From: an uncultured delta proteobacterium
GTDB taxonomy: Bacteria > Myxococcota_A > Polyangia > Polyangiales > Polyangiaceae
NCBI GenBank assembly: GCA_963696385.1
Contig: CAVOKF010000007.1
Span: forward strand, 512,001-576,000
Reading direction: 5' to 3'
Length of the DNA: 64,000 nucleotides
Positions 2,641 to 19,400 of this stretch are shown one piece after another (within the stretch, counting starts at the first letter, position 1; every line of letters begins with the position of its first letter). The position numbers were made by a program, and so were the translations under genes. The notes under the pieces were generated by a model, which saw only the letters and a program-made list of their open reading frames with translations, ran no database searches and was not told where the DNA came from.

Positions 2641-2731
2641 CCCCGACCCCGACCTTACCTCGACCTTACCCCGACCCCGACCTTACCCAACCCCGACCCC
2701 GACCTACCTCGACCTCGACCCCGACCCCGAC
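2641..2731. repeat. Degenerate intergenic hexamer array (GACCCC/GACCTC/GACCTTA)
   Basis: Seen directly: ccccgaccccgaccttacctcgaccttaccccgaccccgacc... Confidence 0.8.
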
Positions 2732-3510
2732 TATCGCACCCGCCCACGCCCACGCGAGAAGAGGCTCAAGACGAAGCAGGCACCCGCGAACAGGACGACC
2801 AGAGGGCCGGCCTCACGATGCAGGAGGTGCGCGGCGTACGTCCCGGCGAGCGTCGTGAACACGGAGACGGCCACCGCAATGGTGAGCATACTGTTCAAGT
2901 TGCCTGCGAGCCGCTTCGCGGTGGCGGCCGGGATGATCGCCAGCGAGCCGATGAGGAGCACGCCCAGGTAGCGAAGGCCGAGCGCAATCGTGAGGGCAAA
3001 GACGATGAGAAAGTGCAGGTTGAGCCGAGCCACGTCAATGCCGGCCGTGCGCGCCATCTCGGGGGAGATCAACGCGAGGACCAGCCGGTGGCGCTCGTAC
3101 AGCACGAACGCCACGACGACGGTGGCCACGACGAGGCCCGCGACCGTCTCGGCCATCGTGAAGCTGCCGGAGCCACCGAAGAGCGCCTCGATGAGCTCGT
3201 CGCCACTGGCCAGCAGACTGCCGGCCGCGAGCGCCATGGAGAAGACGACGCCGATGACCGTTTCGGTGGACAGGCGCGTTCGCTGCTCCAGGGTCCAGAC
3301 GATCAGCGCGCCGAGCAGCAAGGCGGCGAGCCCGCCGAGCATGGCATGGACGTGCAGCAGGACCGCCACGCCGATGCCAGGCAAAGCGATGTGCGAGATG
3401 GCGTCGGCCGCGAGCGTCATCCTTCGCATCACGGCGAAGCAGCCGACGAGACCAGCGGCGACCCCCGTGCCGATTGCGACGACCACCCCGCTAGCTTCGA
3501 GGCCAGTCAT
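2731..3510 (-). CDS. Zn/Mn-type metal ABC transporter permease (ZnuB/MntB family)
   Basis: GCFAVMRRMTLAADAISHIALPG and LGVLLIGSLAIIPAATA are ABC-3 permease signatures; ATG at 3510. Confidence 0.9.
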   Translation of the reverse strand: MTGLEASGVVVAIGTGVAAGLVGCFAVMRRMTLAADAISHIALPGIGVAVLLHVHAMLGGLAALLLGALIVWTLEQRTRLSTETVIGVVFSMALAAGSLLASGDELIEALFGGSGSFTMAETVAGLVVATVVVAFVLYERHRLVLALISPEMARTAGIDVARLNLHFLIVFALTIALGLRYLGVLLIGSLAIIPAATAKRLAGNLNSMLTIAVAVSVFTTLAGTYAAHLLHREAGPLVVLFAGACFVLSLFSRGRGRVR

Positions 3511-4249
3511 GGACGTGGTAGCCCACGGGCGCGCCGTAGACCTGCTCCAGCATGGCGGGGGTGAGCACGCTCGCGGGCGCGCCGAGACATGGGCTGCCGC
3601 CGTGCGCCAGGCAGAGCACATTCGACGCGTAGCGATAGACGACGCTGAGGTCGTGCGAGATGAACAGGACCGTCATGCCCCGCTCGCGGCAGAGACGTTC
3701 GATCGTCGCGTTCATGTTCTCCTGGCCGGGCTGGTCCACGCCGGCCGTGGGCTCGTCGAGCAGCAGGACGCTGGGTTCGCCGACCAAGGCCACGGCGACC
3801 AGCAGACGCTGGAACTGGCCTCCGGAGAGCGCACCGATAGGCTTCCGCAGGAGCGCGTCGGGAAAACCGACGGCGGCGGTGGCGCGGGCCACGTCGGCTC
3901 GCGGCACGCCCGTGACCGCCACTTTGGCCCGGAGGAAGTCTGCGGCGGTCACGGGGAGGTCCCGCTCGATGTCGAGCTTCTGCGGCACGTATCCGAGCCT
4001 CATGTCCTTGGCCCACCGGATCTGGCCCTCGAATGGAAGCGCACCCGTGAGCGCCTTGAAGAGCACTGTCTTCCCGGCCCCGTTCGGGCCGAGGATCGCC
4101 AGCGAGGTGGCTCGCGGCACGCTGAAGGACAGGTGATCGAGAACCGTGGTTTCGTCGAACCGTACGAATAGCCCCTCGACCTCGAGAGCACTGCTCGGAT
4201 CGCGGACTGCGTGCAGGATGTCGCGGCGCGCGGGGTGCCTGGAGGCCAT
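3491..4249 (-). CDS. Zn/Mn-type metal ABC transporter ATP-binding protein (ZnuC-like)
   Basis: GPNGAGKT, GYVPQK, LSGGQFQR, LLLDEPTAGVD, ISHDL; C-terminal YHVH; start 4249 or 4264. Confidence 0.9.
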   Translation of the reverse strand: MASRHPARRDILHAVRDPSSALEVEGLFVRFDETTVLDHLSFSVPRATSLAILGPNGAGKTVLFKALTGALPFEGQIRWAKDMRLGYVPQKLDIERDLPVTAADFLRAKVAVTGVPRADVARATAAVGFPDALLRKPIGALSGGQFQRLLVAVALVGEPSVLLLDEPTAGVDQPGQENMNATIERLCRERGMTVLFISHDLSVVYRYASNVLCLAHGGSPCLGAPASVLTPAMLEQVYGAPVGYHVHDWPRS

Positions 4250-4373
4250 GCGGGAGTCGCTCAAGGTTTAGCCCCACTCCACGGGCTCCCAGAATGCTTC
4301 GGGCGCCGCATCGGGCACCCAAGCGGCTTCTGGCGAAGTTTGCAGAACGAATATACGTGTTTCTCCCGCGGAC

Positions 4374-5321
4374 CTATTGGGTGAGCGCGGTAAGCGACGA
4401 GACGCAGAAGCTGAAGGGCGTGGCGGTGGCCGAGCCCGGAATCTGGAATTCAATGATCGCGACCAGCGTGGGATCCCAGGTCTCGGCAGTCTCCCACGAG
4501 CCTTGGCCCAGGGGCGGAACCGAAGCAGGAACGGTGTTCAGACCAATCGTGTCGACCATGGCGAAGAAGACGTTGTCGTCGCCCTTCTTGCCATAGGCAA
4601 ACCGAATTCCACCGGCGGGAAGTGTTCCGGACAACATGAAGCTGAATCCCGTGACGCCGTTCTTTGTCAGATTGAATGGCTGTTGCCCGCCGGTGTCGTT
4701 CAGCTCGAACCCGATGCCGCCGTACGAGTTCGCGCTCGCGGCGAGAGTACCTTGCGTGCACATGTTGCCCCCGACGTTCGCGAAGCTGCCCGTGCCGGGA
4801 GATATGGTCGAGGCGGTATCGGCGTAGGTAAACCAGTTGCCGTTTATTCCCAAGGAGTTACTCGCGGCATCCACGTGGCCCGTCGCGTCCGGAGTAATCA
4901 GGACGCCAGTCCCGGTCACCGACGAGTCCCCCGGTCCCGAAGGAGTACCTGCGGCCGATCCGTCGCCACTGGCCGTGGCTGAAGAGCCCCCGCCGGAGGA
5001 GCCGGCCGCGGCCGAAGAGGCGCTGCTGGACGGAGAGCTGCTCGTCGAGGATCCGCCACTGGACGGAGAACTGCTGCTCGTCGAGGATCCGCCGCCGGAC
5101 GGAAAGCCGGCCACGGCCGAAGACCCGCCACTGGCGCTCGTCGAGGATCCGCCGCTGGCTGCGGAACTGCCAACGTCAGAGCCGGCGCTCGCGGCGGAAG
5201 TGCTGCCCAATCCCGCGTTTTCCGTGCCTGCCGTCGCACCGCCGCCCGGCCCCTGGGCGCAAGCCATCCATGGCCCAGCGGCGATTGCAACCAGTGAAAT
5301 GCCCGGCCGACCCAGCTTCAT
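4374..5321 (-). CDS. Secreted lipoprotein with Ser/Gly linker and putative carbohydrate-binding beta domain
   Basis: Signal ending WMA-C, long S/G tract, then GINGNWFTYAD...GGIGFELN...GVTGFSF resembling CBM11-like modules. Confidence 0.6.
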   Translation of the reverse strand: MKLGRPGISLVAIAAGPWMACAQGPGGGATAGTENAGLGSTSAASAGSDVGSSAASGGSSTSASGGSSAVAGFPSGGGSSTSSSSPSSGGSSTSSSPSSSASSAAAGSSGGGSSATASGDGSAAGTPSGPGDSSVTGTGVLITPDATGHVDAASNSLGINGNWFTYADTASTISPGTGSFANVGGNMCTQGTLAASANSYGGIGFELNDTGGQQPFNLTKNGVTGFSFMLSGTLPAGGIRFAYGKKGDDNVFFAMVDTIGLNTVPASVPPLGQGSWETAETWDPTLVAIIEFQIPGSATATPFSFCVSSLTALTQ

Positions 5322-5467
5322 GCGCGCGAAGACTACCGCGGCCGAGCGCCCAGCGGAAGCGCTTGCTCGAGGCGCTTGGTCCAGAACTGCTCTGGGTGGA
5401 CGGCGCCGCTCCGTCGATGGTGTCCGTTCGGCGCCGACGCGGGCCATGCGCGGACGGAGCGTGTCCG

Positions 5468-6046
5468 CTAATCGTCCAATCCGAGACCCTCGAGGATCCT
5501 CGGGATGTGCTTCTCCACCCGGGCGGCCCTGGTCGTCGACAGCTTTGGTTGGGAGAAATGGAAGATGTACGCTCGCTGCCGACCCGGCGTCAGCGCGGCG
5601 AAGGCCGCATGCAATTGGGCATTCGCGGCGAGCTTGGACTCAAACTCCGCGGGCAGCTCGATATCCTCGGTCTTTTTGAACTGCACCTTACGCCCGGCGC
5701 GCTCGATCGCGATCGCCTCGCGTACGAAGGCCTTCACCGTCTTCTCGAGCTTGGTCAGCTCTTGGAGGCTCGTGAACCGGATCTGCCGGGCGGCCTGCAC
5801 GTTCTTGGTCTGTTGAATGAGGACGCCCTTGGGGTCCTGGAGCAACGCGCCCTTGTGAAACAGGATGGCGCAATACTCTTTGAAGCCGTGGATGAGCGCG
5901 ACGTTCTTGCCGTCGAGCCCGTAGCATGGCTGGCCCCACTTCAGGTCTTCGGTCAGCCCGCTTTCGAGCAGGATTTCGCGCAGCTTCTCGAACTCCGCGC
6001 GCCACTTGTCCTGCCGCTTCAAAAATGCATCCACCTTGGGGTTCAT
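5468..6046 (-). CDS. YdeI/OmpD-associated family protein (DUF1801 + OmdA)
   Basis: MNPKVDAFLKRQDKW, EDLKWGQPCY, LFHKGALLQDP, LTPGRQRAY, TRAARVEK. Confidence 0.88.
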   Translation of the reverse strand: MNPKVDAFLKRQDKWRAEFEKLREILLESGLTEDLKWGQPCYGLDGKNVALIHGFKEYCAILFHKGALLQDPKGVLIQQTKNVQAARQIRFTSLQELTKLEKTVKAFVREAIAIERAGRKVQFKKTEDIELPAEFESKLAANAQLHAAFAALTPGRQRAYIFHFSQPKLSTTRAARVEKHIPRILEGLGLDD

Positions 6047-6287
6047 CGGCGACCTCCTGTCCCGCGGTGCACGAGCTCCCTTGTACCGCAACGGCGCGCG
6101 CCATGACGAGGGCGGTGTTTGCTCCCAAGCGTCTCGTGCACCCCTTGGTGCAGGACGGGTGGCGAGAGCGCAAGCATCGCAGCGCTGCCCAAGGCAGCTG
6201 CGTCGCCAGCAACCATCGTGCTTGCGCACTGTTGATCCTCGGGCAGCGGCAACCCGGTTCTGCCTTCGAGAACAACCCCTTTTCTCG

Positions 6288-6303
6288 CGGCATACGGCGT
6301 GCA
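6288..6303 (+). promoter_or_regulatory. Putative sigma54 promoter for the diiron-protein gene
   Basis: CGGCATACGGCGTGCA = GG-N10-GC, ~95 bp upstream of ATG 6397. Confidence 0.55.
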
Positions 6304-6396
6304 TGCCACGGGTCCCAAACAGGGGGCGTTCCGCCCCGCAACGAGACTCGTGAAGCCGCCGTCTCGATCGCAAGCCCACCCCTACCGGGAGATCCT

Positions 6397-7314
6397 ATGA
6401 CCATTCAACACAACTACACGTACGCTTCGGCTCTGGACGCCGCCACCCGGGTACACTGGCGGGTCGAAGACGTCGTGGGCAACGGCAAAAATCTCGACTT
6501 TACGAAGCCGTTCTTGCCCGATGCCCTCGCCGGCGTGTCCGGCATCGCTTCCTTGAGCGAGAGCGAGAAGCTCGTATTGAATCAGATTCGCGGCGCCACG
6601 TATCTCCATCTGTTCCAGCTCGTCGAGGAATTCATTCTGCCGTATGCCCATCGACACGCCGGCGACGCGATTCATGGAGACAAGGCTCGCGTGCGAGCGT
6701 TGCTCACGTTCGCCGAAGAGGAAGCAAAGCACCAGGTCCTGTTTCACCGCTTCGCAGAAGCGTTCGAAAAGGGTTTCCCGACGAAACCCGAATTCATCGG
6801 TCCGGCCACGGCCATTGCCAGCGCCGTCTTGGGCCACAGCGATCTCGGCGTGGCGCTCCTGGTCCTGCAGCTCGAGTGGCTCACGCAGCGTCACTACCTC
6901 GAGAGCGTGAAAACGGATGAATCGCTCGACCCCTTGTTCGTGAGTCTTTTGCGCCATCACTGGCAGGAGGAGGCCCAGCATGCGAAGCTCGATACACTGG
7001 TGGCGGCGGAGCTCGCGAGCCAGGCGACGCCCCTGCAGATCGAACAGGCCATCGACGACTTCCTGAAGATCGGCGGGATTCTCGACGGCGGTCTCCAGCA
7101 GCAGGTGCAGTTCGACGTCGCCACGCTCGAGCGCGCGATCGGGCGCACACTCACGCCGGCGCAACGCCAGGAGGTGGAGACCGCGCAACTGAAGTCCTAC
7201 CGCTTCACGTTCCTCGTTTCGGGCCTCGAGCAGCCGAATTTCACGCAAGCCATCGCGGACCTGAGTCCCTCCGGCTTGGCCCGGATCGCGCAAGTGGCGC
7301 GGACGCTGTCGTGA
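6397..7314 (+). CDS. Ferritin-like diiron protein (AurF-like oxygenase family)
   Basis: Carboxylate/His ligand pattern VEEF...EEEAKH...LEW...QEEAQH; GGAG RBS before ATG 6397. Confidence 0.72.
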   Translation: MTIQHNYTYASALDAATRVHWRVEDVVGNGKNLDFTKPFLPDALAGVSGIASLSESEKLVLNQIRGATYLHLFQLVEEFILPYAHRHAGDAIHGDKARVRALLTFAEEEAKHQVLFHRFAEAFEKGFPTKPEFIGPATAIASAVLGHSDLGVALLVLQLEWLTQRHYLESVKTDESLDPLFVSLLRHHWQEEAQHAKLDTLVAAELASQATPLQIEQAIDDFLKIGGILDGGLQQQVQFDVATLERAIGRTLTPAQRQEVETAQLKSYRFTFLVSGLEQPNFTQAIADLSPSGLARIAQVARTLS

Positions 7315-7400
7315 ACGGGTCCGCCCTGACGCCAAACGATGCGGCGTGGATCCCCTCCCGACACCGACGATCATGAAGGGTTGCGAGGCGCTTTCCCCAC

Positions 7401-7431
7401 CCGCCCCTCGGGTGGGGGAAGTGTGCATTCA
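7401..7431. terminator. Hairpin between convergent genes
   Basis: TTCCCCACCCG-cccct-CGGGTGGGGGAA inverted repeat; no poly-T tail. Confidence 0.4.
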
Positions 7432-7977
7432 GGTCTTGGCGGCCGAAGCGAAAAGGGCCACCGCGTCCTGCAAGCTGCGAACGGCGACGGCCAGACGACC
7501 TTCGGCCTCTCGCGTCAGCGCGACCCCAGTGTCTTGCACCGTGATCTCCGCGTCGTTGACGACGAGCGCCGGCAGCGCGCGCGCGCGGAAGAAGCGAAAG
7601 AGAGCCTGAAAGGCAACGCCAACCTCGGCGCCGTGCGAGTCGAGCTTCGTCGTGGCGATACCCAAGGCAGGCCGGTCGACGAGCGCGTCGGGCGGGATCA
7701 GATCGATCAAGGCCTTCAGGCCCGCCGAGTAGGTGGCCTTGTAGACCGGCGTCGAAACAACGATGGCGGCGGCACTCCGGACGACGGACAGAAATGCCGC
7801 GACCGACGGCGCTTCCACGCGGCCCCACAGCAAATCGGCCGCATCGAAGTCGCTCAGCGAAAACAATCGGGTCGACAGGCCGCGACCTTCCAGTTGCCGG
7901 GCGACTTGCTGCGCCACCCGGGTCGACTTCGACGTGGCCGACGGACTGCCCGCGAGAAAAACGACTTGTTGACTCAT
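7429..7977 (-). CDS. ssuE: NADPH-dependent FMN reductase
   Basis: AGSPSATSKS and STPVYKATYSAGLKALIDL; lies within the sulfonate cluster. Confidence 0.8.
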   Translation of the reverse strand: MSQQVVFLAGSPSATSKSTRVAQQVARQLEGRGLSTRLFSLSDFDAADLLWGRVEAPSVAAFLSVVRSAAAIVVSTPVYKATYSAGLKALIDLIPPDALVDRPALGIATTKLDSHGAEVGVAFQALFRFFRARALPALVVNDAEITVQDTGVALTREAEGRLAVAVRSLQDAVALFASAAKT

Positions 7978-8516
7978 GCTCCCTGTTCCCTTTCCCTGGT
8001 GATCGTTCGGCTTGCCCCCGATCGCGGCCCCGGATCGACCAGCCACGATCCGAAGCGGCGGTCAAAATGCAGCAGCGGCGACCCCGCGGAAACGGCGGCC
8101 GCCAGCACCTCGGCGACGAAAATGGTGTGGTCGCCACCGTCGTGAAGCGCGTGGCGCCGGCACTCCAAGGCAGCCAGCGATCCCTCGATGAGAGGGACTC
8201 CGTAGCCGGTGCCGATCGAAAGCGGGATGCCGGCAAATCGGTCGATGCCCGATCGAGCGAACTGCGCGGCGATGGGCGCCTGCCGCTCGTCGAGAATGCT
8301 CACGCCGACATGCTCGCAGGTGAGGATGCGATCGTACGCGCTCGCCTTCTTTCCGACGCAGGCAAGAACGAGCGGGGGGCAAAGCGACAGCGCGCTGAAG
8401 GCCGTGGCGGTGAACCCGACGAGGCCGCTCGGATGCCGGGCCGCCACGATGGTGACCCCGGAGGCGAAACGCGCGAGCGCGTCGCGAAATGCATCGGCAG
8501 CCAACGGCACGTTCAT
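7974..8516 (-). CDS. Flavin reductase (HpaC/DszD-like)
   Basis: FRDALARFASGVTIV, FSALSLCPPLVL, GGDHTIF; 4-bp overlap with ssuE. Confidence 0.88.
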   Translation of the reverse strand: MNVPLAADAFRDALARFASGVTIVAARHPSGLVGFTATAFSALSLCPPLVLACVGKKASAYDRILTCEHVGVSILDERQAPIAAQFARSGIDRFAGIPLSIGTGYGVPLIEGSLAALECRRHALHDGGDHTIFVAEVLAAAVSAGSPLLHFDRRFGSWLVDPGPRSGASRTITREREQGA

Positions 8517-8571
8517 CGAAAAGGCTCCTCGTCCCGCGCGTCCTTTCGGCCGGCGCCGCTTGGTGCTTGGC

Positions 8572-8587
8572 TGCATGCATCGCGCCA
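8572..8587 (-). promoter_or_regulatory. Putative sigma54 promoter for flavin reductase-ssuE
   Basis: Minus strand TGGCGCGATGCATGCA = GG-N10-GC. Confidence 0.6.
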
Positions 8588-8724
8588 AGGCACCGGGAGC
8601 CAGGAGTGACCCGCCGCCGGGCCAAGAGCCCGAGGCTCGATGGCCGCGCGCTTCGCAACCGACTCCCGCCGAAGCCGCGATCTCAACCGAACCGAATCTT
8701 ACGTCTCTTATACTGGACGTGCAT

Positions 8725-8739
8725 CTACTATTATAGTAG
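8725..8739. promoter_or_regulatory. AT-rich palindrome upstream of the sfnR-like gene; possible Rrf2-family (IscR/CymR-type) operator
   Basis: CTACTA-TTA-TAGTAG perfect inverted repeat in an otherwise GC-rich region, 20 bp before ATG. Confidence 0.55.
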
Positions 8740-8758
8740 TCGTTCAGCCCGTGAGACC

Positions 8759-10768
8759 ATGACGCTTCTGCATCTGCCCCGATCCGATGCCCCGCCGTCC
8801 CGTGCGCGAGCTCTCGTCTTCGAAGACCCCCTCTCGCACGAATTACTGAGAAGTCTCGAGCAAATCGCTCCGACCGACGCGACGGTTCTCATCACCGGTG
8901 AGACGGGCACCGGCAAGGAGATCATCGCCCGCCGGCTGCACGAGCGAAGCATGCGCGCGAAGGCTCCCTTCGTCGCAGTCAACTGCGGGGCCTTGGCCCC
9001 ATCGCTCATCGAGAGTGAGCTCTTCGGACACGAAAAGGCGGCGTTCACCGGCGCTCTCACGGCCAAGGCCGGTTGGTTCGAGGCGGCGGGTGGCGGCACG
9101 CTGTTCCTCGACGAGATCGCCGATCTGCCCCTTGCGGCGCAGGTGAAACTCCTGCGTGTCCTGCAGGAGCGGGAAATCGTCCGCATCGGTGCGCGGCGGC
9201 CGGTCGCCATCGACGTCCGTCTCATCGCCGCGACGAACGCCAACCTCGCGCAGGCCGTGACCGAGGGCCGGTTCCGAGAGGACCTCTTTTACCGGCTGCA
9301 CGTCGCCCACTTGACGCTGGCTCCGCTCCGGGACCGGTCCGGCGACATCCTTCCGCTCGCCAAGTATTTCATCGCAACCTACGCGGCCCGACTCGGGCTC
9401 GATGCCGTCCCGCTTACCCCCGAGGCGCAGGCCAAGCTTTTGGCCCATCGATGGTCGGGCAACATCCGCGAACTGGAGAATGCGATGCACCACGCCCTGC
9501 TCGTGCGAAGCGAGGGATGCATCGACGCCGACGATCTGCGTCTCATCGAGGAGGGGCCCATCCGCCCGTCGCCTTCGAGCCCTCCGCCGCCCAAAGACGA
9601 CGCGCCGCGTTCGCGCCCGGGCGACCCGCTCGGGGCGATGGAAGCGGCTCTCGTCGCGTGGTTCGAGCGCGAGCCGCCGAGCCTGCTGCAGCAAATCGAA
9701 GAGGCGGTCTTTCGCAAAGCCTACGAATTTTGCGAACACAACCAGCTGCGTACCGCGCGACTTCTCGGCACGAGTCGAAACATCGTCCGCGCGAGGCTCA
9801 TCCATCATGGCTTGCTCGCCTCGAGTCCCGAGCCTCAGACGTCCGCCGCGCCGGGCGAAAGCCCTCCTGCATGCTCTCCGAAAGCCATCCGCGTGCGCAT
9901 CGGTCACCAGCCGTTCGGCGTGCTGTCTTTGCTCAAAGCGACGCGAGCGCTGGAGGATGCATTTGCCGTGCACGGGGCCGAGGTCGAATGGACACGCTGC
10001 GCCACCGGTATGCAAGTGGTCGACGGACTCGCCGTCGGTGCCATGGATCTCGGCGTGGTCGGCGAGGCGCCTCCGGTCTTCGCACAAGCCGCCTATGCGC
10101 CGCTCGTGTATCTGGCCGCCGAGCCGCCGGCTCCCGAGGGCGAGGGGATCCTGGTCTTGGACGCATCGCCCATCCGCAAGGTCTCGGACCTACGCGGCAA
10201 GACCATTGCCGTCCCACGCGGCTCGAACGCCATGTACTTCGTGCTTCGAGCCCTCGAGGAATGCCGCTTGAACCCCGGCGACGTGGATATCCGTCCGCTC
10301 GCGCCCTCGGAGGGCCACCGCGCGCTGTTGCGGTCGGAGGTGGATGCCTGGGCGATTTGGAATCCGCTCCTGGCGTTCGTCCGGCAGACGACGCCCGTTC
10401 GCCAGATCCGCGACGCCCGCGGCCTCGCCAGCAACCGAGCGTTTTACGTCGCGCGCTTGGCCTTTGCGGATGCTCATCCCGAATGGGTCGACGCGTTTCT
10501 CGGACAAGTGGCCGCCTTGGGCCGGTGGGCCATGGAAAACCGGCGGGCCGCAGCGGACGCGCTTGCGCCGGAGACCGACGTCCCCGCCGACGCGATCGAG
10601 ACGGCGCTCTCGGCGACCCGTTTCGATGTCGGTCCGATCCGAGCGGAGGTCGTGGCCTCTCAACAGCGCATCGCCGACACGTTTTGTCGACTGGGCCTCA
10701 TCGCGCGCCCTGTTCGGGTGGGCGATGCGGTCTGGGCTCCCCCGGGAGCACAACGGCGCTCGGCGTAG
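8759..10768 (+). CDS. SfnR-like sigma54 activator (AAA+ and Fis-HTH) fused to a C-terminal SsuA-like sulfonate-binding domain
   Basis: [58 protein letters not shown]; then [52 protein letters not shown]. Confidence 0.88.
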
Positions 10769-11903
10769 CGGGGACGTGGCCGGGCGCGTAGCGTTGCGCC
10801 AGCATTTCACCGAACGGTCCGGTCAGGTTGTGCTCGAAACCGTTGGCGGGCGTTTCAAGCGGAAGCCTCGGGAAGAGAAGCTCGGCCACCCGATACGCCT
10901 CCTCGAGGTGCGGATAGCCGGAGAGGATGAAGCTGTCGACTCCCGCATCCGCGTATTCGAGTATCCGCGCCGCGACCGTGTCCGGGTCCCCCACGAGCGC
11001 CGTGCCGGCGCCACCCCGAGCGAGACCCACGCCGGCCCACAGGTTGGGGCTCACCTCCAGCTTGTCGCGGCGCCCTCCGTGAAGGGCCACCATACGACGC
11101 TGCCCCTCCGACTCGAAGTGCGCGAACGCATGCTGCGCCGCCGCGATCGCAGCGTCGTCGAGGCGGCTGATGAGAGCCTCGGCCGCCGACCAGGCCTCCG
11201 AGTCGCTTCGTCGGACAATCACGTGCACGCGGAGCCCAAAACGCAAGGTGCGCCCAAGCTTCGCCGCGCGCTCGCGAACATCCGCGATCTTCGCGGCCAC
11301 CGCTCGGGGGGGCTCGCCCCAGCTCAAGTACACGTCGACCTCGCGCGCCGCGACGTCGTGGCCCGCATCCGACGAGCCCCCGATGTAGATCGGCGGGTGC
11401 GGGCGCTGCACCGGCGGATAGAGAATTTTGGCGCCGCGCACCGAAATGTGTCGACCTTCGAAGTCGACGGTTTCGCCACTCAGAACCCGTTTGAAAATCT
11501 GCAAGAACTCCGAGGTCGCCACGTAACGCTCATCGCGTCGCAGGTAGACGCCATCGCCCTCGGACTCGGCCGGATCGCCTCCCGTGACCACGTTGAGTAA
11601 GACGCGCCCCCGGGAGATGCGATCGAGCGATGCCGTCATGCGCGCGGCGAGGGTCGGTGAAAGGATGCCAGGGCGCAGGGCGACGAGAAACCGAAGCCGA
11701 TCGGTTACGGGCACCATGGCGGAGGCCACCACCCACGCGTCTTCGCACGAGCGTCCGGTGGGCAAAAGAACTCCGTAGAACCCGAGTGCGTCCGCCGCCT
11801 GCGCGATCTGCCGCAGATACGGTAGGTCGACGCCCCGAGCCCCGTCGGCGCTTCCGAGAAAGGCACCGTCGCCGTGGGTGGGCAGAAACCAAAATATGTC
11901 CAT
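10698..11903 (-). CDS. ssuD: FMNH2-dependent alkanesulfonate monooxygenase
   Basis: [70 protein letters not shown]. Confidence 0.95.
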
Positions 11904-11993
11904 ACTTGGTGCCCTGCCCGCAAATCTCGGGCCCGGCAGGCGACCCTCGAAGAGGGTGTGGAAGCGGATTCGGGACTGCTGGCCACGCAGCCG

Positions 11994-12009
11994 TGCTCCA
12001 GCAGTGCCG
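11994..12009 (-). promoter_or_regulatory. Possible sigma54 promoter for ssuD
   Basis: Minus strand CGGCACTGCTGGAGCA = GG-N10-GC; weak -12 element. Confidence 0.35.
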
Positions 12010-12139
12010 TTTGCTGCGCAGCAGGTGTCCGGGCGTGGGACGCGACATCAGCCCGTGTCGTGGCGGACAGGATCTTCGAAAGCCGTCCGGCGCTCCAAAG
12101 CCCGGGATTGTCCGCGATCCGACCGACCGCGCTCGCACC

Positions 12140-12155
12140 CGGCATGTGGCCTGCA
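12140..12155 (+). promoter_or_regulatory. Putative sigma54 promoter for the MsuC/SfnA-like gene
   Basis: CGGCATGTGGCCTGCA = GG-N10-GC. Confidence 0.55.
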
Positions 12156-12166
12156 CGCGGCCCGGT

Positions 12167-13327
12167 ATGACCGATCTGCTCTCTATGGCCGAGGGCCTGG
12201 CCCGGACCTTCGCGGCGACCGCGATCGAACGCGACCGCGCCGGAGGGACCCCGAAGCGCGAGCGCGATGCCCTGCGCGCAAGCGATCTCTTGGCCATGTC
12301 CATTCCCGTCCGCCTCGGCGGCAGCGGGGCGGACTGGGCCACGACGCTCCGCGCCGTGCGCGCGATTTCGCGCGCGGACGGATCGCTCGGACACGTTTTC
12401 GGCTTCCAGCACCTCTTGCTTGCAACCGTTCGCCTGTTCGGCACGCCCGCCCAGTTCGATGCCCTGGCGCGCGACACGGTGAAACAGCGGTGGTTCTGGG
12501 GTAACGCCCTCAACCCCCTCGACACGCGAGCCAGGCTCGTGCAACGCGGAGACGAGTTCGCGATCTCGGGCACGAAGAGCTTTTGCTCCGGTGCCAGGGA
12601 TGCCGACATGCTCGTCGTGTCGGCGACCGATGCCGTCAACGGTCGGCTCATCGTGGCGGTCGTGCCCGCTTCGCGCCCCGGAATCACCGCTCATGACGAT
12701 TGGGACAATATGGGGCAACGCCAAACCGATAGCGGCACCGTCGTCTTCGACAACGCCCGCGTGCTCGAGAGCGAGATCCTCGCGCATCCCGGGCCGCTCG
12801 GCAGCCCGCTCGCCTCGCTTCGGCCTCTCGTCGCCCAGCTCACCCTCGTCAACGTCTATATCGGGCTTGCGGAGGGTGCCTTCGAGGCCGCCCGGACGAT
12901 CACCCGCGAGCGAGGCAAAGGTTGGTTTGCGAGTGGGGTCGAACGGATCGTCGACGATCCTTACGTCCTGGCCTCGTTCGGTGACCTGTATTGCGAGCTC
13001 GAGGGCGCACGGCTCATCGCGGACGCGGCCGCGGCGAAGCTCGACGGGGCGTGGACCCGCGGCGACGAGCTCACGACCCACGGCCGCGGCGAAGTGGCGG
13101 TCGCCGTGGCCGCCGCCAAGGTGGCTGCGACGCGCGCGGGCTTGGAGGTGACCAGCCGGATCTTCGACGCGACCGGTGCGCGTGCGACGACGGCGCGTCT
13201 CGGACTCGATCGCTTCTGGCGCAACCTGCGCACCCATACCCTGCATGACCCGGTCGACTACAAGCGCCGAGACGTGGGGCGCTGGCTTCTCACCGATGAG
13301 TGGCCGGCCCCCTCTTTCTACTCGTGA
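12167..13327 (+). CDS. Acyl-CoA dehydrogenase-fold flavin monooxygenase (MsuC/SfnA/DszC-like)
   Basis: FWGNALNPLD, GTKSFCSGA, DDWDNMGQRQTDSG, LDRFWRNLRTHTLHDPVDYK, C-terminal PSFYS. Confidence 0.85.
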   Translation: MTDLLSMAEGLARTFAATAIERDRAGGTPKRERDALRASDLLAMSIPVRLGGSGADWATTLRAVRAISRADGSLGHVFGFQHLLLATVRLFGTPAQFDALARDTVKQRWFWGNALNPLDTRARLVQRGDEFAISGTKSFCSGARDADMLVVSATDAVNGRLIVAVVPASRPGITAHDDWDNMGQRQTDSGTVVFDNARVLESEILAHPGPLGSPLASLRPLVAQLTLVNVYIGLAEGAFEAARTITRERGKGWFASGVERIVDDPYVLASFGDLYCELEGARLIADAAAAKLDGAWTRGDELTTHGRGEVAVAVAAAKVAATRAGLEVTSRIFDATGARATTARLGLDRFWRNLRTHTLHDPVDYKRRDVGRWLLTDEWPAPSFYS

Positions 13328-13444
13328 GGTCACCGGCTGGCCGCCGCGTGTTCTGTAGCAGCAACAGCCCCGCAGTCGGTGCACATGTCGGGGCAGACGA
13401 CACGACGCTGGGTCGAATTCCGTTCTTTTTGCGGCGATTGGGGC

Positions 13445-13460
13445 CGGCACAAAGCCTGCA
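13445..13460 (+). promoter_or_regulatory. Putative sigma54 promoter for sfnG
   Basis: CGGCACAAAGCCTGCA = GG-N10-GC, 50 bp upstream of ATG with AAGGAG RBS. Confidence 0.7.
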
Positions 13461-13510
13461 CCCGAGCAGGGCGAAGGCGAGTGAACCGGACATATCCGAA
13501 GGAGCGCACG

Positions 13511-14617
13511 ATGAGTATCGAGACGAGCACGCGCGTAAACGAACCCATCAAGTTCGCCTACTGGGTCCCCAACGTGAGCGGGGGCCTGGTGATTAGCAAG
13601 ATCGAGCAGCGGACCGACTGGAGCCTCGACTACAATGTGAAGCTCGCGCGGCTCGCCGAGAACCATGGCTTCGAATACGCGCTGAGCCAGGTCCGTTACA
13701 TGGCAAGCTACGGGGCCGAGTTCCAGCATGAGTCGACGACCTTCAGCTTCGCGCTGCTCCAGGCGACGCAGCGGCTCAAGGTCATTGCGGCCATCCACCC
13801 GGGCCTATGGCATCCGGCCGTGCTCGCCAAACTCGTGGCCACGCAGGACCTGCTGAGTGGGGGACGATCGGCCGTGAACGTCGTCAGCGGGTGGTTCAAA
13901 GGTGAATTCACCGCGCTCGGAGAGCCTTGGCTCGAGCACGACGAACGCTACCGGCGGTCGGAGGAATTCATTCGCGTGCTCCGGGGCAGTTGGACCGAGG
14001 ACCACTTTTCATTCTCCGGCGACTTCTATCGCATCCATGGGTACAGCTTGAAGCCGAAGCCCATCCAGTCCCCGCACCCGGAGATCTTCCAGGGCGGCAC
14101 TTCTCGAGCGGCGCGCGACATGGCCGCCCGGGTCTCTGATTGGTATTTTTGCAACGGCAATACGATCGAGGCCATCCAGGCACAAGTCGACGACATCCGA
14201 CGCAAAGCCGCCGAGGTCGGCCGGCGTCCTCCGAAGATTGGAATGAACGCGTTCATCATCGCCCGCGACACGGAAGCCGAAGCGAAGAAGGTCCTCGACG
14301 ACATCGTCAAGCATGCGGACCGCGAAGCGGTCAACGCGTTCGGAGACGCCGTCAAGCAAGCGGGCAAAGCGTCTCCCGAGGGTCAGGGCAATTGGGCCAA
14401 TTCGACGTTCGAAGATCTCGTGCAATACAACGACGGATTTCGGCCGGGATTGGTCGGTACACCGGATCAAATCGCCGGTCGGATCGCCGCATACAAGTCC
14501 GCCGGGGTCGATCTGGTGCTCGCGGGCTTTCTTCACTACTTGGAAGATGTCGAATACTTCGGCAAACGGATCCTGCCGTTGGTGCGCGCGGGCGAGTCCA
14601 ATCGCGTCGCGGCGTAA
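13511..14617 (+). CDS. sfnG: Dimethylsulfone monooxygenase
   Basis: IKFAYWVPNVSGGLVISKIEQRTDW, WLEHDERYRRSEEF, DLVQYNDGF, GFLHYLEDVEYFGKR. Confidence 0.93.
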   Translation: MSIETSTRVNEPIKFAYWVPNVSGGLVISKIEQRTDWSLDYNVKLARLAENHGFEYALSQVRYMASYGAEFQHESTTFSFALLQATQRLKVIAAIHPGLWHPAVLAKLVATQDLLSGGRSAVNVVSGWFKGEFTALGEPWLEHDERYRRSEEFIRVLRGSWTEDHFSFSGDFYRIHGYSLKPKPIQSPHPEIFQGGTSRAARDMAARVSDWYFCNGNTIEAIQAQVDDIRRKAAEVGRRPPKIGMNAFIIARDTEAEAKKVLDDIVKHADREAVNAFGDAVKQAGKASPEGQGNWANSTFEDLVQYNDGFRPGLVGTPDQIAGRIAAYKSAGVDLVLAGFLHYLEDVEYFGKRILPLVRAGESNRVAA

Positions 14618-14859
14618 GGTCCGGACGGCTTTTTGTCCAACACCCAGCGCCTCTCTGCTTGGGGCGGCTCCAGCTGAGCCGCGCGCCAGTGAGAGGCGGC
14701 CCCAGGCGGGGACGCGCTCGCTGACGCGCAGCAGTTGGTGGGGGCGAGAGCCTCGAGCCCATCGGCGAAGCGACGGCTGTACGCCGACCGATCTCCCCTG
14801 GGGGAGATGCGGGTGGTTACGCGGTTACCGAGCCGCCGCCCGAAGCGGGAGCGACCGCC

Positions 14860-16101
14860 TCAACTCCATGCGTGAAGCGGCGGATTGACCCCATTGAGGT
14901 AGTAGTCGCCGAGGATTGCGTACTTCCAGCGGACCGGATCGTGAAGGGTGTGAGTGCGAGCGTTTCGCCAATGCCGATCGAGGGCGTGTTCGGCCAGCGT
15001 CGAGCGCGTGCCGGCGAGCTCGAAAATCTTGTTGGTGGCCAAAATGGCTAATTCAGTCGAAAAAATCTTGGCTTTGGCCACTTCGATTTGCGCCTCGGCG
15101 ACCGCTTGGGTGCTGGGCTCCGCCACGGCGCGGTCCACCGCCCGCCCCGCCCCGTCGAGCAACGCCTGCGTCGCGCTCAATCGGAGCTCGAGGTCGCCAA
15201 TCGCCTGAATCGTGTACGGATCGGCGGTCGCCGACTCCACACCGCTATCGACCCACGCTCGAGTTTTCGTCTTCACGAATTCGATCGTGTCCTCGATGGC
15301 GGCCCGTGCGATGCCTGTGTCGACCGCGGCCTGGATAATCTGAAAGATCGCGCCGTCGGCGGTCGGGTGGTCGTACCCTTTGTAGCCGGGAACCAGGTGC
15401 GTCTTCGGTACCTTGACGTTTTTGAGCAGCACCGTTCCGCTGAGGGTCGTCCGCTGTCCAAAACTCGACCAATCGTCGATGACGCTCAAGCCGGGCGCAT
15501 CCCGCTCGGCGATCGCATACCAGGCCCTACCCTGATCATCGAGCGCCACGATGGGCACGAGGTGCGCGAGGAGCGCGCCGGTTGCATAAAATTTTCGGCC
15601 GTTCACGATTACGTGGTCGCCCTTGTCCTCGAAGCGCGTCTCGAAGTCGACCGCGCGCTTCGACCCGTATTCTGAAAACGCGTTGCCGAATCGAAGGCCT
15701 CGCAGGACGGCGGCAAACAAGAGCTTCTGCTGGTCCGGATCCGAAACGGTGCGAATCGCGGCCACCACGCCGAGATGATTTTGCGGAATCTGGCCCAGCG
15801 ACGGGTCTGCGGCCGAGATGATTTCGATGACGCGGGAGAGTGTAACGTACGACACTTCGGGCCCGCCGAACTTTTTCGGCACATTGATCGACCAGAGACC
15901 GCTCTGCGAGAAGTCATCGAGTTCCTCGAGCGGCCGACGGCGTGTTCGGTCACGCTCGGCGGCTCCTTTGGCAAATTTCTGTGCGAGCTCTCGCGCGACG
16001 GCAATGGCTTCTCGATCGTCACGAAGGATGTGGGCGGGGTGTTTGGGGCGGGCTACCGCCGGCGCGGGTTCGGTGGCATTCTGCGAAGAAGCACTGGTCA
16101 T
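14860..16101 (-). CDS. sfnB: SfnB-family sulfur-acquisition oxidoreductase
   Basis: ADPSLGQIPQNH, DDWSSFGQRTTLSG, LDRHWRNARTHTLHDPVRWKY, C-terminal PLHAWS. Confidence 0.85.
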   Translation of the reverse strand: MTSASSQNATEPAPAVARPKHPAHILRDDREAIAVARELAQKFAKGAAERDRTRRRPLEELDDFSQSGLWSINVPKKFGGPEVSYVTLSRVIEIISAADPSLGQIPQNHLGVVAAIRTVSDPDQQKLLFAAVLRGLRFGNAFSEYGSKRAVDFETRFEDKGDHVIVNGRKFYATGALLAHLVPIVALDDQGRAWYAIAERDAPGLSVIDDWSSFGQRTTLSGTVLLKNVKVPKTHLVPGYKGYDHPTADGAIFQIIQAAVDTGIARAAIEDTIEFVKTKTRAWVDSGVESATADPYTIQAIGDLELRLSATQALLDGAGRAVDRAVAEPSTQAVAEAQIEVAKAKIFSTELAILATNKIFELAGTRSTLAEHALDRHWRNARTHTLHDPVRWKYAILGDYYLNGVNPPLHAWS

Positions 16102-16123
16102 GGGACTCTCCGCAACGCACCGA

Positions 16124-16139
16124 GGCATCGGCCGTGCCA
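16124..16139 (-). promoter_or_regulatory. Putative sigma54 promoter for sfnB
   Basis: Minus strand TGGCACGGCCGATGCC; canonical TGGCACG -24 element. Confidence 0.7.
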
Positions 16140-16453
16140 CGGCAACGGACACGGTGCGACGCGCGAAACGGGTGGGCCCGGGCATTGCCGTCCACCCGAA
16201 CGTGATGGGCCTCGCGCAGCGGGTGTTGGCGGACTGCTGCTGGACACGCAAAACGGCCGCCGCCGACGGCGCGCCCGTCGGATCCAGCCACTCGCGTTTC
16301 CTCCGCGCTAATGGCATCGAGGCTGCGCGCCGTACGAACCAACCAGAAGGGTCGTCGATGCCGAGCGTGCACTATGGGGAGGATGCGGCTGCTTCCACGG
16401 ATTGCCGGACAAGGCGTACCCATGAATGACCCTGGCGCTCGCCGTGTTGCAGG

Positions 16454-19400
16454 TTAGGAGAGCAGCAGTTCGAGGTCGGCGCGGGTCAACCCACCGACGG
16501 CAGCTCCACCCTCGCCGAACAGCGCGTCGGCCAGCTCCCGCTTTTGCGACTGCAGCTGCGCGACCTTCTCCTCTACGGTACCGCGTGCGATCAACCGGTA
16601 GGCGAGCACGGTTCGCGCCTGGCCAATCCGATGGGCACGGTCGATCGCCTGCGCCTCGACCGCGGGATTCCACCACGGGTCAAGCAGAAATACGTATTCT
16701 GCCGCGGTGAGGTTCAGCCCTGTCCCGCCGGCCTTGAGGCTCAGCAGGAACACGCTGCACCGTGCGTCCGACTGGAAGCGCGCCACGCATCCGGCGCGGT
16801 CGGTCGTGGCGCCGTCGAGGTACTCGTATTCGATGCCGCTCCGTTCGAGGCGGTCGCGCACGATGGAGAGGAGGCTCGTGAACTGCGAAAATACGAGTGC
16901 CTTCTGACCCTGGGTGCGCAGGGCGTCGAGGTGTTGGAGAAGGACGTCGAGTTTGGCGCTCGGTTCGCCGCGCAGTCCTTCGTCGATGAGCCCCGGATGG
17001 CAAGCTGCCTGACGCAGACGAAGCAGTGCCTCGAGAATGTGGGCGGTCGAGCGGGCCACACCGTCTCGGGCGACTCTCCGGCCGAGCGATCGCCGGTAGT
17101 GGCCGTGCAACTGGTCGTACCGGCGCCGCTGCTCGCCTTCGAGCTCGCACGAGATCGTCTGCTCAATCCGATCGGGCAGCTCGGGCGCGACCTGGCGCTT
17201 CGTGCGGCGAAGAAAGAATGGGCGCACCGCCCGTGCGAGTACGTCACGCGTAGCGTCGTCGATACGATGGGTCCCCTGCGCCAGCGTGGACAGGGCGTTC
17301 GAGGCGCCGAGCAGGCCCGGATTCAAGAAATCGAGCAATGCCGCGAGTTCGCCCAGGTGGTTTTCTACCGGCGTTCCGGTCAGCGCGAGCCGGTGCCGGG
17401 CTCGCAGCGCACGCGCGGCCTGCGCCGTCGCCGTGCGCGCGGTCTTGATGGCCTGGGCCTCGTCGAGGATGACGTAATCGAAGTCAAGCTGCGAGAGCGC
17501 CTCGAGATCGCTGCGGAGCAGCCCGTACGTGGTCAGCACCAAATCGTAGTCACCGAAGTTGCCGCCCGGATCGGCCCGTGTGGGGCCGTCATGTTCCAGC
17601 ACGCGCAGCCGCGGTGCAAAGCGGGCCACCTCCGCCGCCCAGTTGAACAAGACCGACCGGGGTGCCACGACGAGCGAAGGTCCGGGCGCGGGGCGCTCCT
17701 GGCGACGCGCATCGAGCATGGCGAGCACCTGGACCGTCTTGCCGAGACCCATGTCGTCGGCCAGGCAGCCCCCGAACCCAAGCTGGCGAAGCGCTTTGAA
17801 CCATCCAAGCGCATGGCGCTGGTACTCGCGAAGGCTTCCCTGGAATGTGCGCGGAGGGTCGAGCGGCGTGATGTCGGCGAACGCGTGGACATCCCGGCGC
17901 AGCGCGGCGAACCCGGCATCGAACGTAGGGAGTCGTTCGCTCTCCAAAAGCGCGGCGACGAGCGGCGCCTGCACCTTGTGAAAGCGCAGCCCGTCATCGC
18001 GCGGCGCAGCCATCGCGACCCATCGGCGCAATTTCTCGATCTGGTCGTCGGAAAGCTCGCCCACCGAGCCGTCGGCGAGGACGATGTTTCGCCGCTTCTG
18101 CCGAAGCGCCGCGAGCAGTTCGGGAAACGCCGCGTCGATTCCGTCGAAGCGAGCCTGGACCCCCACCTCCAGCCAGTCGATGCCCGTCGAGACCGAGACC
18201 GCGAAAGCGCCGGCGGAACGACGAAGGGTGCCGTTGACTTCGATGCGCCAGCCCAGCCCGACGAGCGCTCGCGCGGCCGGCTCGACCTTGCCGAGCGCAA
18301 TGCGGTGGGCACAGCGCTCCGCCGTCCGACGTTGCCAGTGCTGCAGCGGGCGGACCCCGACGGCCTCGAGTTGTCCGCGAGCGGTGTCCTCGGCGCCCGC
18401 GTCCCGAACGACCAAGCGCCGGCGGGCGCGGTCGAAAACGGCCGAGCCCCGGGTGTCCAATGGGACGCGCACCCCGTCGTAGTCGAAGCCCGCTTCGACC
18501 CGTTGCCCACCCTCGATCGCGGCTTGCCGGTTGGTCTGGAGCAGAGCGTAGGGCCGTCCGGCGCCGTGAACCTCGGGCACGGCATGCTCGGGCGGCAGCG
18601 TCAACCGCGGAGCGCGTGGGGCGCGGAACAACGCGTCGATGAAATCGTCGACCTCATGGATCGGAAGCGCGGCAGGCTGTGAGGCCCTTTCCTCCGCCAA
18701 CCACGCGAAGTGTCCGCGGTCATCGAAGGGGGCCACGCGATCGGCCCAAAACGCGAAACCGCCTATCAGAACGAGCTCCGGATCGCACGCGGGGACGGCT
18801 TCGTCGGCTCGCTCCAGAATGGCCCGGACGCGAAGCGTGTCGCCTTCATCAGGCTGGGTCACCGCGAGGGCGAGCGAGTACGGCTCGGGATCCCAACGGA
18901 GCGGAACACGGTCGGGCTCGCCGAGATACGCGCGGCCGCTCGCGACGAGCCTCTCGAGGAGCTCTCTCGACGCACGTCCGACGGAAAAGGTTCCCGCGCC
19001 GAGCGCACCGTGGGCGGCCCCATGTCCACCGGCGGCCTGGCTGGCCGCGTCGAGGAGCCCGAGCACCCAGGCGTCGGACTCCGGCACGAAGCTCCCCCAA
19101 GGCCTTCCGATGCGGGCGGGACGCCAGAGACCGGCGTTCTGCGGACCGACCCTCTCCACGACCCGCACCACCAGCGAACCCCGAGCCTTGGTCGCCACGG
19201 GATCCAGGACGAAACGAAGCGTGCTCCGTCCGGGCTCCGGAGGCCGAGCGGATGCCGCTCGCGCCGCCATGAGGTCACGCCAGCTCGCTTCAGGACCGCG
19301 CGTGGAGGGACGCTTTGGGATGGCCGGGGTGATCTGCGTCGGTCCTCGGTCCCGCTCGTCCCCGTCCCGGCCTTTGTTGTCATCGTCCGTCGCGTCGCCG

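Follow-up and report, generated by a model that had tools for sequence, protein, structure and literature searches.

The DNA analysed here, hereafter the window, is a stretch of 64,000 nucleotides from an uncultured delta proteobacterium of the GTDB family Polyangiaceae (NCBI GenBank assembly GCA_963696385.1, contig CAVOKF010000007.1, positions 512,001 to 576,000 of the forward strand). A gene on its plus strand (8759-10768) was found to encode, in one polypeptide, a sigma-54-dependent transcriptional activator with an SfnR-like core and, behind the DNA-binding domain, a complete binding-protein domain of the SsuA family. The fusion is real and is an uncharacterised variant of two well-known families, whose interest lies in the order of its domains and in its likely function. 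We put the probability at roughly 55% that the protein is a ligand-gated sigma-54 activator made of a single polypeptide and switched by a sulfonate-type ligand on its SsuA-type domain; that a ligand binds, which ligand it is, the sign of the control and the promoters that respond are points that we infer.

Positions 8759-10768 form one stop-free frame of 669 amino acids. An alternative, longer frame begins at an ATG at 8489; the start at 8759 was taken as the real one because the N-terminus that it gives fits the family consensus (M1, L4 and L6 are conserved in a 117-row alignment) and because of the lengths of the relatives (570-714 amino acids). The AAA+ sigma-54 interaction domain and its lid occupy residues 21-261 (8819-9541, plus strand), as judged from PF00158 and PF25601, the sequence motifs and the fold; Pfam placed Sigma54_activat at residues 21-185 (E = 1.5e-68) and AAA_lid_14 at residues 191-261. 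A helix-turn-helix (HTH), probably of the Fis type, follows at residues ~290-349 (9626-9805, plus strand). It is covered by full-length models of NtrC, FlbD and PspF, which align from residue ~15 to ~348, it is modelled as four helices with a predicted local distance difference test (pLDDT) of ~85-94, and its motif ARLLGxSRNxVRARL is nearly invariant in the family alignment. Next comes a flexible linker rich in proline, serine and alanine (residues 353-377, 9815-9889, plus strand), with low pLDDT and a length of 11-61 residues (median 29.5) across 120 family members. Here and below, counts out of 120 refer to the 120 best relatives listed among 5.8 billion proteins, one of which is the protein of the window itself. 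The remainder of the protein is the SsuA-family domain at residues 378-660 (9890-10738, plus strand), predicted to be cytoplasmic. NCBIfam model TIGR01728 (SsuA_fam) spans residues 379-660 with 179.8 bits against a cut-off of 163.5, Pfam NMT1 matched residues 402-585 with 37.6 bits against a cut-off of 20.5, and matches of the NMT1/OpuAC type together span residues 394-601. Neither a signal peptide nor a membrane segment was found, the highest Kyte-Doolittle mean over 19 residues in the whole protein being 1.31 (usual threshold 1.6). The preliminary description of this sequence had read the gene as a single open reading frame with SfnR-like AAA+, Fis-type HTH, Pro/Ser linker and complete SsuA-like domain, the last beginning at about 9893, with no signal peptide or transmembrane segment at the junction. 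Frame, profile matches and hydropathy bear this out, down to the first residue of the TIGR01728 match (residue 379), which is encoded from base 9893.

Since the assembly is a draft of eight contigs, and a paralogous SfnR-like gene on its contig C8 changes frame between the AAA+ and HTH parts, an artefact had to be considered in which assembly or sequencing error had joined two neighbouring genes, or in which the gene is a decaying pseudogene. Contigs from three independent studies bridge the junction region 9790-9900 free of insertions and deletions and differ from it by 0-1 substitutions (X2 record 23, 9596-10386; X9 record 30, 9634-10410; X10 record 6, 9698-10196). A separately assembled Polyangiaceae metagenome-assembled genome (MAG; locus L009) keeps all 669 residues in one frame at 96% identity in a single high-scoring segment pair. 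The listed relatives cover 82-100% of the query in all 120 cases, every one with PF00158 and 119 of the 120 with a binding-protein Pfam domain. The same single gene is present in complete genomes of Sorangium, Pendulispora, Azospirillum, Pantoea and Klebsiella. Furthermore, the ratio of nonsynonymous to synonymous substitution rates (dN/dS) between the window and L009 was 0.073 in the binding domain, 0.106 in the AAA+ domain and 0 in the HTH, and 0.38 and 0.93 in the two linkers, the last value resting on few sites; selection thus maintains both halves and leaves the linkers free to vary. The junction is therefore no assembly artefact, and with these contigs, relatives and signs of purifying selection the explanation by error or decay is already refuted. 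Of the checks named in the preliminary description, that of the junction at 9790-9900, made here with contigs, and that of the domain architecture in relatives both came out in favour of the fusion: the 119 other listed relatives carry it at full length, and it is not the case that only separate genes occur.

The activator half carries the AAA+ motifs of a sigma-54 activator. Walker A reads GETGTGKE and Walker B LFLDE, and the key residues are conserved in the family (K53 in 118/120, D118 and E119 each in 119/120). The FTGA core of the sigma-54 contact loop is kept in 118-119 of 120 members, its first position being G in 106, A in 12 and S in one. The genome encodes sigma-54 (rpoN, 423.7 bits against a cut-off of 277) and gave 46 matches to proteins of the enhancer-binding protein (EBP) type. 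The closest unfused relative is a sensor-less Pseudomonas protein of 366 amino acids, 56% identical over 355 residues, which is preceded by ssuE-like and SfnB/MsuC-like genes; we take this arrangement of ssuE-like gene, acyl-CoA dehydrogenase-like gene and regulator to be the sfnE-sfnC-sfnR pattern. SfnR1 and SfnR2 are the sigma-54 activators of the sfn and msu genes for the use of dimethylsulfone and methanesulfonate, and a protein of this type would, in Pseudomonas, be regulated mainly via its own expression level. The protein of the window resembles SfnR of P. putida and P. aeruginosa (SfnR1/SfnR2) in its AAA+/HTH core without an N-terminal sensor and in its setting among sfnG, sfnB and ssuD/msuD-type genes. 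It differs in that the Pseudomonas protein ends just after the HTH, ~20 residues beyond it, whereas the fused protein adds an SsuA-type domain of 290 residues. The activator half is thus, as far as its sequence tells, an SfnR-like core as the preliminary description had held, but in an architecture that differs from plain two-domain SfnR.

The C-terminal half matched SsuA end to end, with E values of 7e-46 for the E. coli protein (2x26) and 5e-41 for that of Xanthomonas citri. According to the available text of PMC3839906, the sulfonate is contacted in X. citri SsuA by Gln36, Gly68, Gly86 and Ser141, while Trp185 packs on the carbon chain. In a HMMER alignment to chain 3e4r_A these positions map to Q384, G417, G435, N490 and W534, which are conserved in 115, 120, 120, 117 (as Asn) and 120 of the 120 family members, respectively. 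Four of the five contacts are thus identical in the fused domain and the fifth is a common Ser/Asn variant. The exchange of Ser141 for Asn had been entertained as a sensor-specific change of the pocket and was dropped, since Asn is equally common in exported relatives (55 Asn and 46 Ser of 135, with fused and short proteins separated by a simple motif rule, so that some of the short rows are fragments of fused proteins). The pocket is maintained as in a working SsuA, which argues for ligand binding and reveals no changed specificity. SsuA is normally periplasmic and part of the SsuABC importer, whereas the fused domain lacks an export signal, forms one covalent chain with a transcription factor and is encoded without a neighbouring ssuB or ssuC; it cannot be a transporter component. 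Among the neighbouring genes at 4374-16317 neither ssuB nor ssuC was found, and the sole ABC (ATP-binding cassette) genes nearby (2731-4264) are of the Znu type. The preliminary description had inferred that the transporter's binding protein was repurposed; this domain is not a local duplicate of such a protein, for there are no ssuABC genes in the cluster. Other SsuA-like genes are present elsewhere in the genome.

An AlphaFold2 model built on 117 family sequences (mean pLDDT 89.7) showed three folded bodies, namely the AAA+ domain, a four-helix HTH at residues 290-349 and a two-lobed alpha/beta domain at residues 377-660, separated by two disordered stretches (267-286 and 357-370) with pLDDT below 50. 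In a Foldseek comparison the N-terminal body matched the AAA+ domains of FlrC and NtrC1 with a target-normalised TM-score (TMt) of ~0.94, the AAA+ domain of DmpR (6iy8) being another of the fold matches of this half. The C-terminal body matched X. citri SsuA with bound MES (3ksj) with a TMt of 0.93 and a root mean square deviation (rmsd) of 1.6 Å, and E. coli SsuA 2x26 with a TMt of 0.85. The kinship to SsuA (E. coli 2X26; X. citri 3E4R, 3KSJ and 3KSX; TMt 0.85-0.93) is thereby one of fold as well as of the TIGR01728 score above cut-off. None of the Foldseek matches listed spans both bodies at low rmsd.

The genes around the regulator are of the ssu and sfn type. Divergent from it lies a gene for an SsuE-like NAD(P)H:FMN reductase (7429-8046, minus strand), which scored 115.1 bits with TIGR03567, below the cut-off of 164, and is syntenic in L009. 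Convergent with it lies ssuD (10698-11903, minus strand), encoding an FMNH2-dependent alkanesulfonate monooxygenase (NF001939, 632.7 bits, cut-off 510). Beyond ssuD follow a gene for a DszC/SfnB-like monooxygenase with the acyl-CoA dehydrogenase fold (12167-13327, plus strand; NF043015 361.6 and TIGR04022 282.4 bits, both below the cut-offs), sfnG for dimethylsulfone monooxygenase (13511-14617, plus strand; TIGR04021, 612.7 bits, cut-off 383) and a gene for a sulfur-acquisition oxidoreductase of the sfnB family (14860-16101, minus strand; TIGR04022, 605.2 bits, cut-off 431). The early assignment of the flanking genes to the ssu/sfn type is upheld by the scores of SsuD, SfnG and SfnB, all above their cut-offs. 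The order regulator, ssuD, dszC-like gene, sfnG recurs in four further loci, L009, L010, L011 and L017, from Polyangiaceae, 'Myxococcales' and Kofleriaceae, and a dszC-like gene is also present in locus L021. In Azospirillum the regulator stands between an msuE-sfnG-ABC-sfnB unit and a unit of amidohydrolase, ssuD and acyl-CoA dehydrogenase-like genes; in Pantoea and Klebsiella an operon of ssuD, an oxidoreductase and a luciferase-like monooxygenase runs divergently from it. In Polyangia, Azospirillum, Pantoea and Klebsiella taken together, genes of the ssuD, sfnG, msuE or sfnB type are the usual neighbours of the fused gene. The 3' ends of the regulator gene and of the convergent ssuD overlap by 71 nucleotides (10698-10768), as they do in L009 and L011 and do not in L010 and L017; no terminator can therefore sit between the two genes, and antisense interference is possible.

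Candidate sigma-54 promoters precede the presumed target genes. Upstream of ssuD lies a -24/-12-type element, GGCCCGAGATTTGC (11920-11933, minus strand). Each of the five syntenic loci has such a GG-N10-GC element, with TTGC as its -12 box, between -29 and -33 relative to the ATG; the GG, GC and TTGC columns do not vary in an intergenic alignment whose columns are on average just 57% identical. The DszC/SfnB-like gene is preceded by GGCATGTGGCCTGCA (12141-12155, plus strand), and four loci have comparable elements between -27 and -32; in two more they stand at -72 and -76. A third element of this type, GGCACAAAGCCTGCA (13446-13460, plus strand), lies 66 nucleotides upstream of sfnG and is conserved only in the near-identical L009, being weak in L010, L011 and L017, and a fourth, TGGCACGGCCGATGCC (16124-16139, minus strand), lies 38 nucleotides upstream of sfnB. 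Sigma-54 promoters close to the consensus stand beside the regulator in other lineages, too: TGGCACGCTGATTGCC and TGGCACCGTTGTTGCG in Azospirillum, TGGCATGCATCCTGCT in Pantoea and TGGCATGATTATCGCT in Klebsiella.

The region between the divergent ssuD and dszC-like genes contains a dyad, CGGGACTGCTGG / CCAGCAGTGCCG (11971-12009), with arms of 12 nucleotides that are 15 nucleotides apart and 92% complementary. It includes, at 11976-11990, a copy of the pattern TTGC-N5-CAGCAG with one mismatch, and is a candidate enhancer site. CGGCACTGCTGGAGCA, at -106 of ssuD, had been considered as a promoter and was re-read as one arm of this dyad. An exact copy of the pattern, TTGCGTGTCCAGCAG (16237-16251, minus strand), lies ~100 nucleotides upstream of the -24 element of sfnB and shares 13 of 15 bases with the copy at 11976-11990. 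In 182 kb of loci four exact matches were found, all in target intergenic regions (upstream of sfnB in the window, in the spacer between ssuD and the dszC-like gene of L017, and twice upstream of ssuD in Pantoea), and the window, L009, L021 and Azospirillum have copies with one mismatch in the equivalent regions; since the pattern was chosen after some of these same sequences had been seen, it is taken only as a candidate enhancer site.

Upstream of the regulator gene itself, a perfect palindrome, CTACTAT-T-ATAGTAG (8725-8739), lies in an AT-rich patch 20 nucleotides before the ATG. Just before it stands the block TCTnTTATACTGGAC (8700-8720), partly conserved in L009, L010, L011 and L017 with an invariant GGAC, and GGAC-N4-GTCC dyads are present in L011 and L017. 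The palindrome and this block may form the regulator's own promoter or operator. A scan of 8000-8800 for sigma-70 promoters gave no consensus match.

How the fused protein might act can be outlined from these elements. Since SfnR-type activators are sensor-less and the SsuA-type domain is the only plausible input, we read the protein as a one-component switch. A sulfonate-type molecule inside the cell (an alkanesulfonate, methanesulfonate or a related sulfonyl compound) would bind to the SsuA-type domain, and closure of its two lobes on the ligand would release or promote the assembly of the AAA+ ring on enhancers of the TTGC-N5-CAGCAG type. The ring would then remodel sigma-54 RNA polymerase at the -24/-12 promoters of ssuD, of the unit of dszC-like gene and sfnG, and of sfnB, and the desulfonating monooxygenases would be made when their substrates are present.

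Several observations weigh against this reading. In the protein itself, Pfam HTH_8 stayed below its cut-off (E = 0.025, 14.8 against 22 bits) and the sigma-54 contact loop reads AAFTGA, not GAFTGA, with A at the first position in 12 of 120 members; the 366-residue Pseudomonas relative also has AAFTGA. The predicted template modelling score (pTM) of the structural model is 0.58 and both linkers are disordered; contacts between the domains are not confidently predicted, nor is, at this pTM, their relative placement. The pocket residues are equally conserved in exported SsuA and so point to a working pocket, not to regulatory use. Contigs from RNA libraries (X19) are 93-95% alike, come from a relative, cover only parts of the gene and fail to bridge the junction; no claim of expression is made from them. 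On the DNA side, -24/-12 patterns are not significantly enriched in the GC-rich window (25 against 19.6 expected, 16 against 11.8 and 4 against 1.66); it is therefore positional conservation, and not frequency, that speaks for these elements. As the window and L009 are near-identical, the ssuD element stands for about four independent lineages, and canonical spacing would put the transcription starts of ssuD and the dszC-like gene ~5 nucleotides before the ATG, making the messages near-leaderless. TTGC-N5-CAGCAG was derived post hoc from Pantoea and window sequences and then counted in loci that include these, and it is degenerate in Klebsiella, L010 and L011. Lastly, the genomic setting varies: within 8 kb of the regulator, all five Sorangium loci and L016, from a Polyangiaceae MAG, have no relatives of the ssu and sfn genes of the window. 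Family models applied to the neighbours found no recognisable organosulfur gene in the Sorangium loci L014 and L020, and in L016 a weak arylsulfatase-like match and a sulfatase maturase.

Two other functions of the domain have to be weighed against the sulfonate switch. The domain might sense a different signal of sulfur status, such as sulfite, sulfate or a sulfinate intermediate, and shut the activator off when sulfur is plentiful, thereby replacing functionally the CysB/Cbl-type control of ssu and sfn genes in Proteobacteria. SfnR is under sulfate-starvation control in Pseudomonas, as such a role would suit, and the position equivalent to Ser141 is a nearly fixed Asn (117/120). Moreover, the conserved contacts (main-chain NH, Gln and Ser/Asn, which form a positive dipole) hold, in the available text of PMC3839906, the sulfonyl or oxyanion head group and not the carbon chain, so that small oxyanions are conceivable ligands. 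The Asn is, however, also the commonest residue in exported SsuA relatives and no mark of a new specificity, and Trp534, whose X. citri counterpart stacks on the carbon chain, is invariant (120/120), which suits an organic ligand better than a bare oxyanion. We regard control by sulfur status as unlikely.

Slightly less credit still is given to the view that the C-terminal domain no longer senses at all and has become a module for oligomerisation or partner binding, which might keep dimers apart or dock a second protein, with control exerted via the expression level or a trans-acting factor. Sensor-less activators such as PspF and HrpR/S offer a parallel, and the SfnR-type Pseudomonas protein of 366 residues works without such a domain. 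The low pTM of the model (0.58) and the two Sorangium loci without organosulfur neighbours fit this view as well. A mere scaffold would not, however, be expected to retain the residues that contact the sulfonate, and these are kept in 115-120 of 120 members; besides, the dN/dS of the binding domain (0.073) is lower than that of the AAA+ domain and of both linkers. The related domain in locus L013 is a truncated remnant without the EBP half, so there is no working stand-alone gene there.

The fused family is, judged from database matches, sporadically distributed over Myxococcota and Pseudomonadota and not unique to this genome. Named sources of the listed relatives include Polyangiaceae, Sorangium, Pendulispora and Myxococcaceae. 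A tblastn search of 72,556 plasmid records gave 2455 matching records, 72 of which cover at least 80% of the query in one place with 43-46% identity; the matches are from Azospirillum sp. B510, Pantoea species, Klebsiella pneumoniae and Chimaeribacter. With the binding domain alone, an exhaustive HMMER search of 1.84 billion representatives found 222 proteins at E ≤ 1e-30. The closest rows are fused proteins or HTH-bearing fragments, and the first true stand-alone relatives, with leaders that resemble signal peptides, are at most 44% identical. Within the GTDB family of the window, 11 of 200 other sampled genomes matched the domain at E 1e-30: in five the open frame is as long as that of a fused protein (636-777 amino acids), in one it is cut by a contig end, one genome of the same genus holds only a remnant of 386 amino acids, and the rest look like ordinary SsuA genes with ~40% identity. 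In 400 other genomes of the phylum no match to the full-length query was found, a search that scored just two candidates in each genome, where EBP paralogues number in the dozens, and that says little about absence; the binding-domain query at E 1e-40 likewise gave none in the same 400 genomes, and with few candidates scored per genome this also says little about absence.

In a quick tree by maximum likelihood, built from 15 fused domains and 83 that stand alone, the fused domains fell into two well-supported clades, one of 12 Myxococcota-type rows (support 99) and one with Azospirillum, Pantoea and one metagenomic row (support 95). Both clades and two stand-alone rows form a weakly supported group, and the tree requires two state changes but leaves room for a single origin of the fusion. 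Tentatively, and with clearly less confidence than we place in the sulfonate switch, we propose that a transporter's binding protein was joined, in one or at most two events, to the C-terminal side of the HTH in an SfnR-type activator without a sensor, which would have created a new class of ligand-gated sigma-54 activators with the input C-terminal of the DNA-binding domain. The module and TTGC-N5-CAGCAG would then have spread horizontally across Myxococcota, Alpha- and Gammaproteobacteria as a self-contained organosulfur switch.

Truncated relics of the binding domain of the fused gene are present in L013 (7818-8828) and in L091 (G533:C15:904135-904929), 62% and 60% identical, respectively, without the first strand, the C-terminal helices and the entire activator half; they suggest that some close relatives, one of them a genome of the same genus, have lost the regulator. 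On plasmid pPag1 of Pantoea vagans (L090:10046-10892) a second SsuA-like sequence lies directly downstream of the fused regulator, split over two frames and unannotated, and looks like a decayed binding-protein gene. The Klebsiella pneumoniae record with the fused regulator (L096, NZ_CP129771.1) is filed as a linear plasmid of 692 kb, with xni and the fuc operon nearby, which we take to be chromosomal genes in enterobacteria; the fused regulator may thus belong to the chromosomal gene set of K. pneumoniae.

A second SfnR-like activator is encoded in the genome of the window itself (C8:868238-870700, minus strand), 64% identical over residues 15-275, with its HTH in another reading frame than the AAA+ domain, that is, with a frameshift or an assembly error. 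A separate NMT1/SsuA-like gene without an obvious hydrophobic leader follows this activator; labels read from the translations add a TonB-dependent receptor, an oligopeptide-type ABC transporter and an NtaA/DmoA-like monooxygenase to the locus. This paralogue was considered as a natural split form of the fusion and rejected, since the EBP changes frame within its own length and the binding-protein-like gene downstream is just 27% identical.

The closest parallel on record for a binding protein of this superfamily that serves as a cytoplasmic sensor is NasS, which acts on NasT in trans. As the available text of PMC3795266 has it, NasS of the NasS-NasT systems (Paracoccus denitrificans, Azotobacter vinelandii) is an NrtA-like binding protein that resides in the cytoplasm and acts as the nitrate sensor of the regulator NasT, and sensors of this type are mis-annotated as transport proteins; the likeness lies in a binding protein of the NrtA/SsuA/TauA group that has lost its export signal and become a cytoplasmic sensor (PMC3795266, same text). 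NasS is a separate polypeptide which releases an RNA-binding antiterminator and has nitrate as its ligand, whereas here the candidate sensor is fused to a sigma-54 activator and its ligand would be of the organosulfur class. One-component sigma-54 activators are otherwise represented by DmpR/XylR, and also by NorR and PrpR, in which the ATPase is thought to be released by the direct binding of a small molecule (see the abstract of PMC7264223). The sensors of these activators (V4R, GAF and others) stand at the N-terminus, and a short coiled linker connects them to the AAA+ domain, whereas the only candidate sensor described here lies C-terminal of the HTH and has a binding-protein fold. In the textbook order of an enhancer-binding protein, the sensor is followed by the ATPase and this by the DNA-binding domain, and to our knowledge control over the AAA+ ring from the C-terminal side of the DNA-binding domain is undescribed for any enhancer-binding protein. 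In the literature searched, outside of which lay subscription papers and 1.7 million PMC articles, no published study of the fusion was found.

A widespread family with a sensor of the binding-protein fold behind the DNA-binding domain would show that an AAA+ ring can be gated in a different manner. It would account, too, for how bacteria that do not follow the CysB/Cbl paradigm time the production of monooxygenases that cleave sulfonates and sulfones, which is relevant to the cycling of sulfur in soil and peat. In public annotation the proteins are called either 'aliphatic sulfonate ABC transporter substrate-binding protein' or 'sigma-54-dependent Fis family transcriptional regulator'; with hundreds of these genes labelled as a transporter's binding protein, counts of transporters in genome and metagenome surveys are distorted. 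A ligand-gated sigma-54 switch with a broad, engineerable pocket could, furthermore, serve as a scaffold for biosensors.

Two further reading frames just beyond the sfn cluster are unrelated to the finding: 16454-19741 (minus strand) encodes a helicase of the SNF2 family of 1095 amino acids with an N-terminal SWIM zinc finger, and 21112-22068 (plus strand) is an AbiEii/nucleotidyltransferase-like reading frame. On the other side of the regulator, a long reading frame with DUF1801 and OmdA domains (5468-6379, minus strand) overlaps an equally long-reaching, weakly AurF-like candidate (5926-7314, plus strand), and both are conserved in L009.

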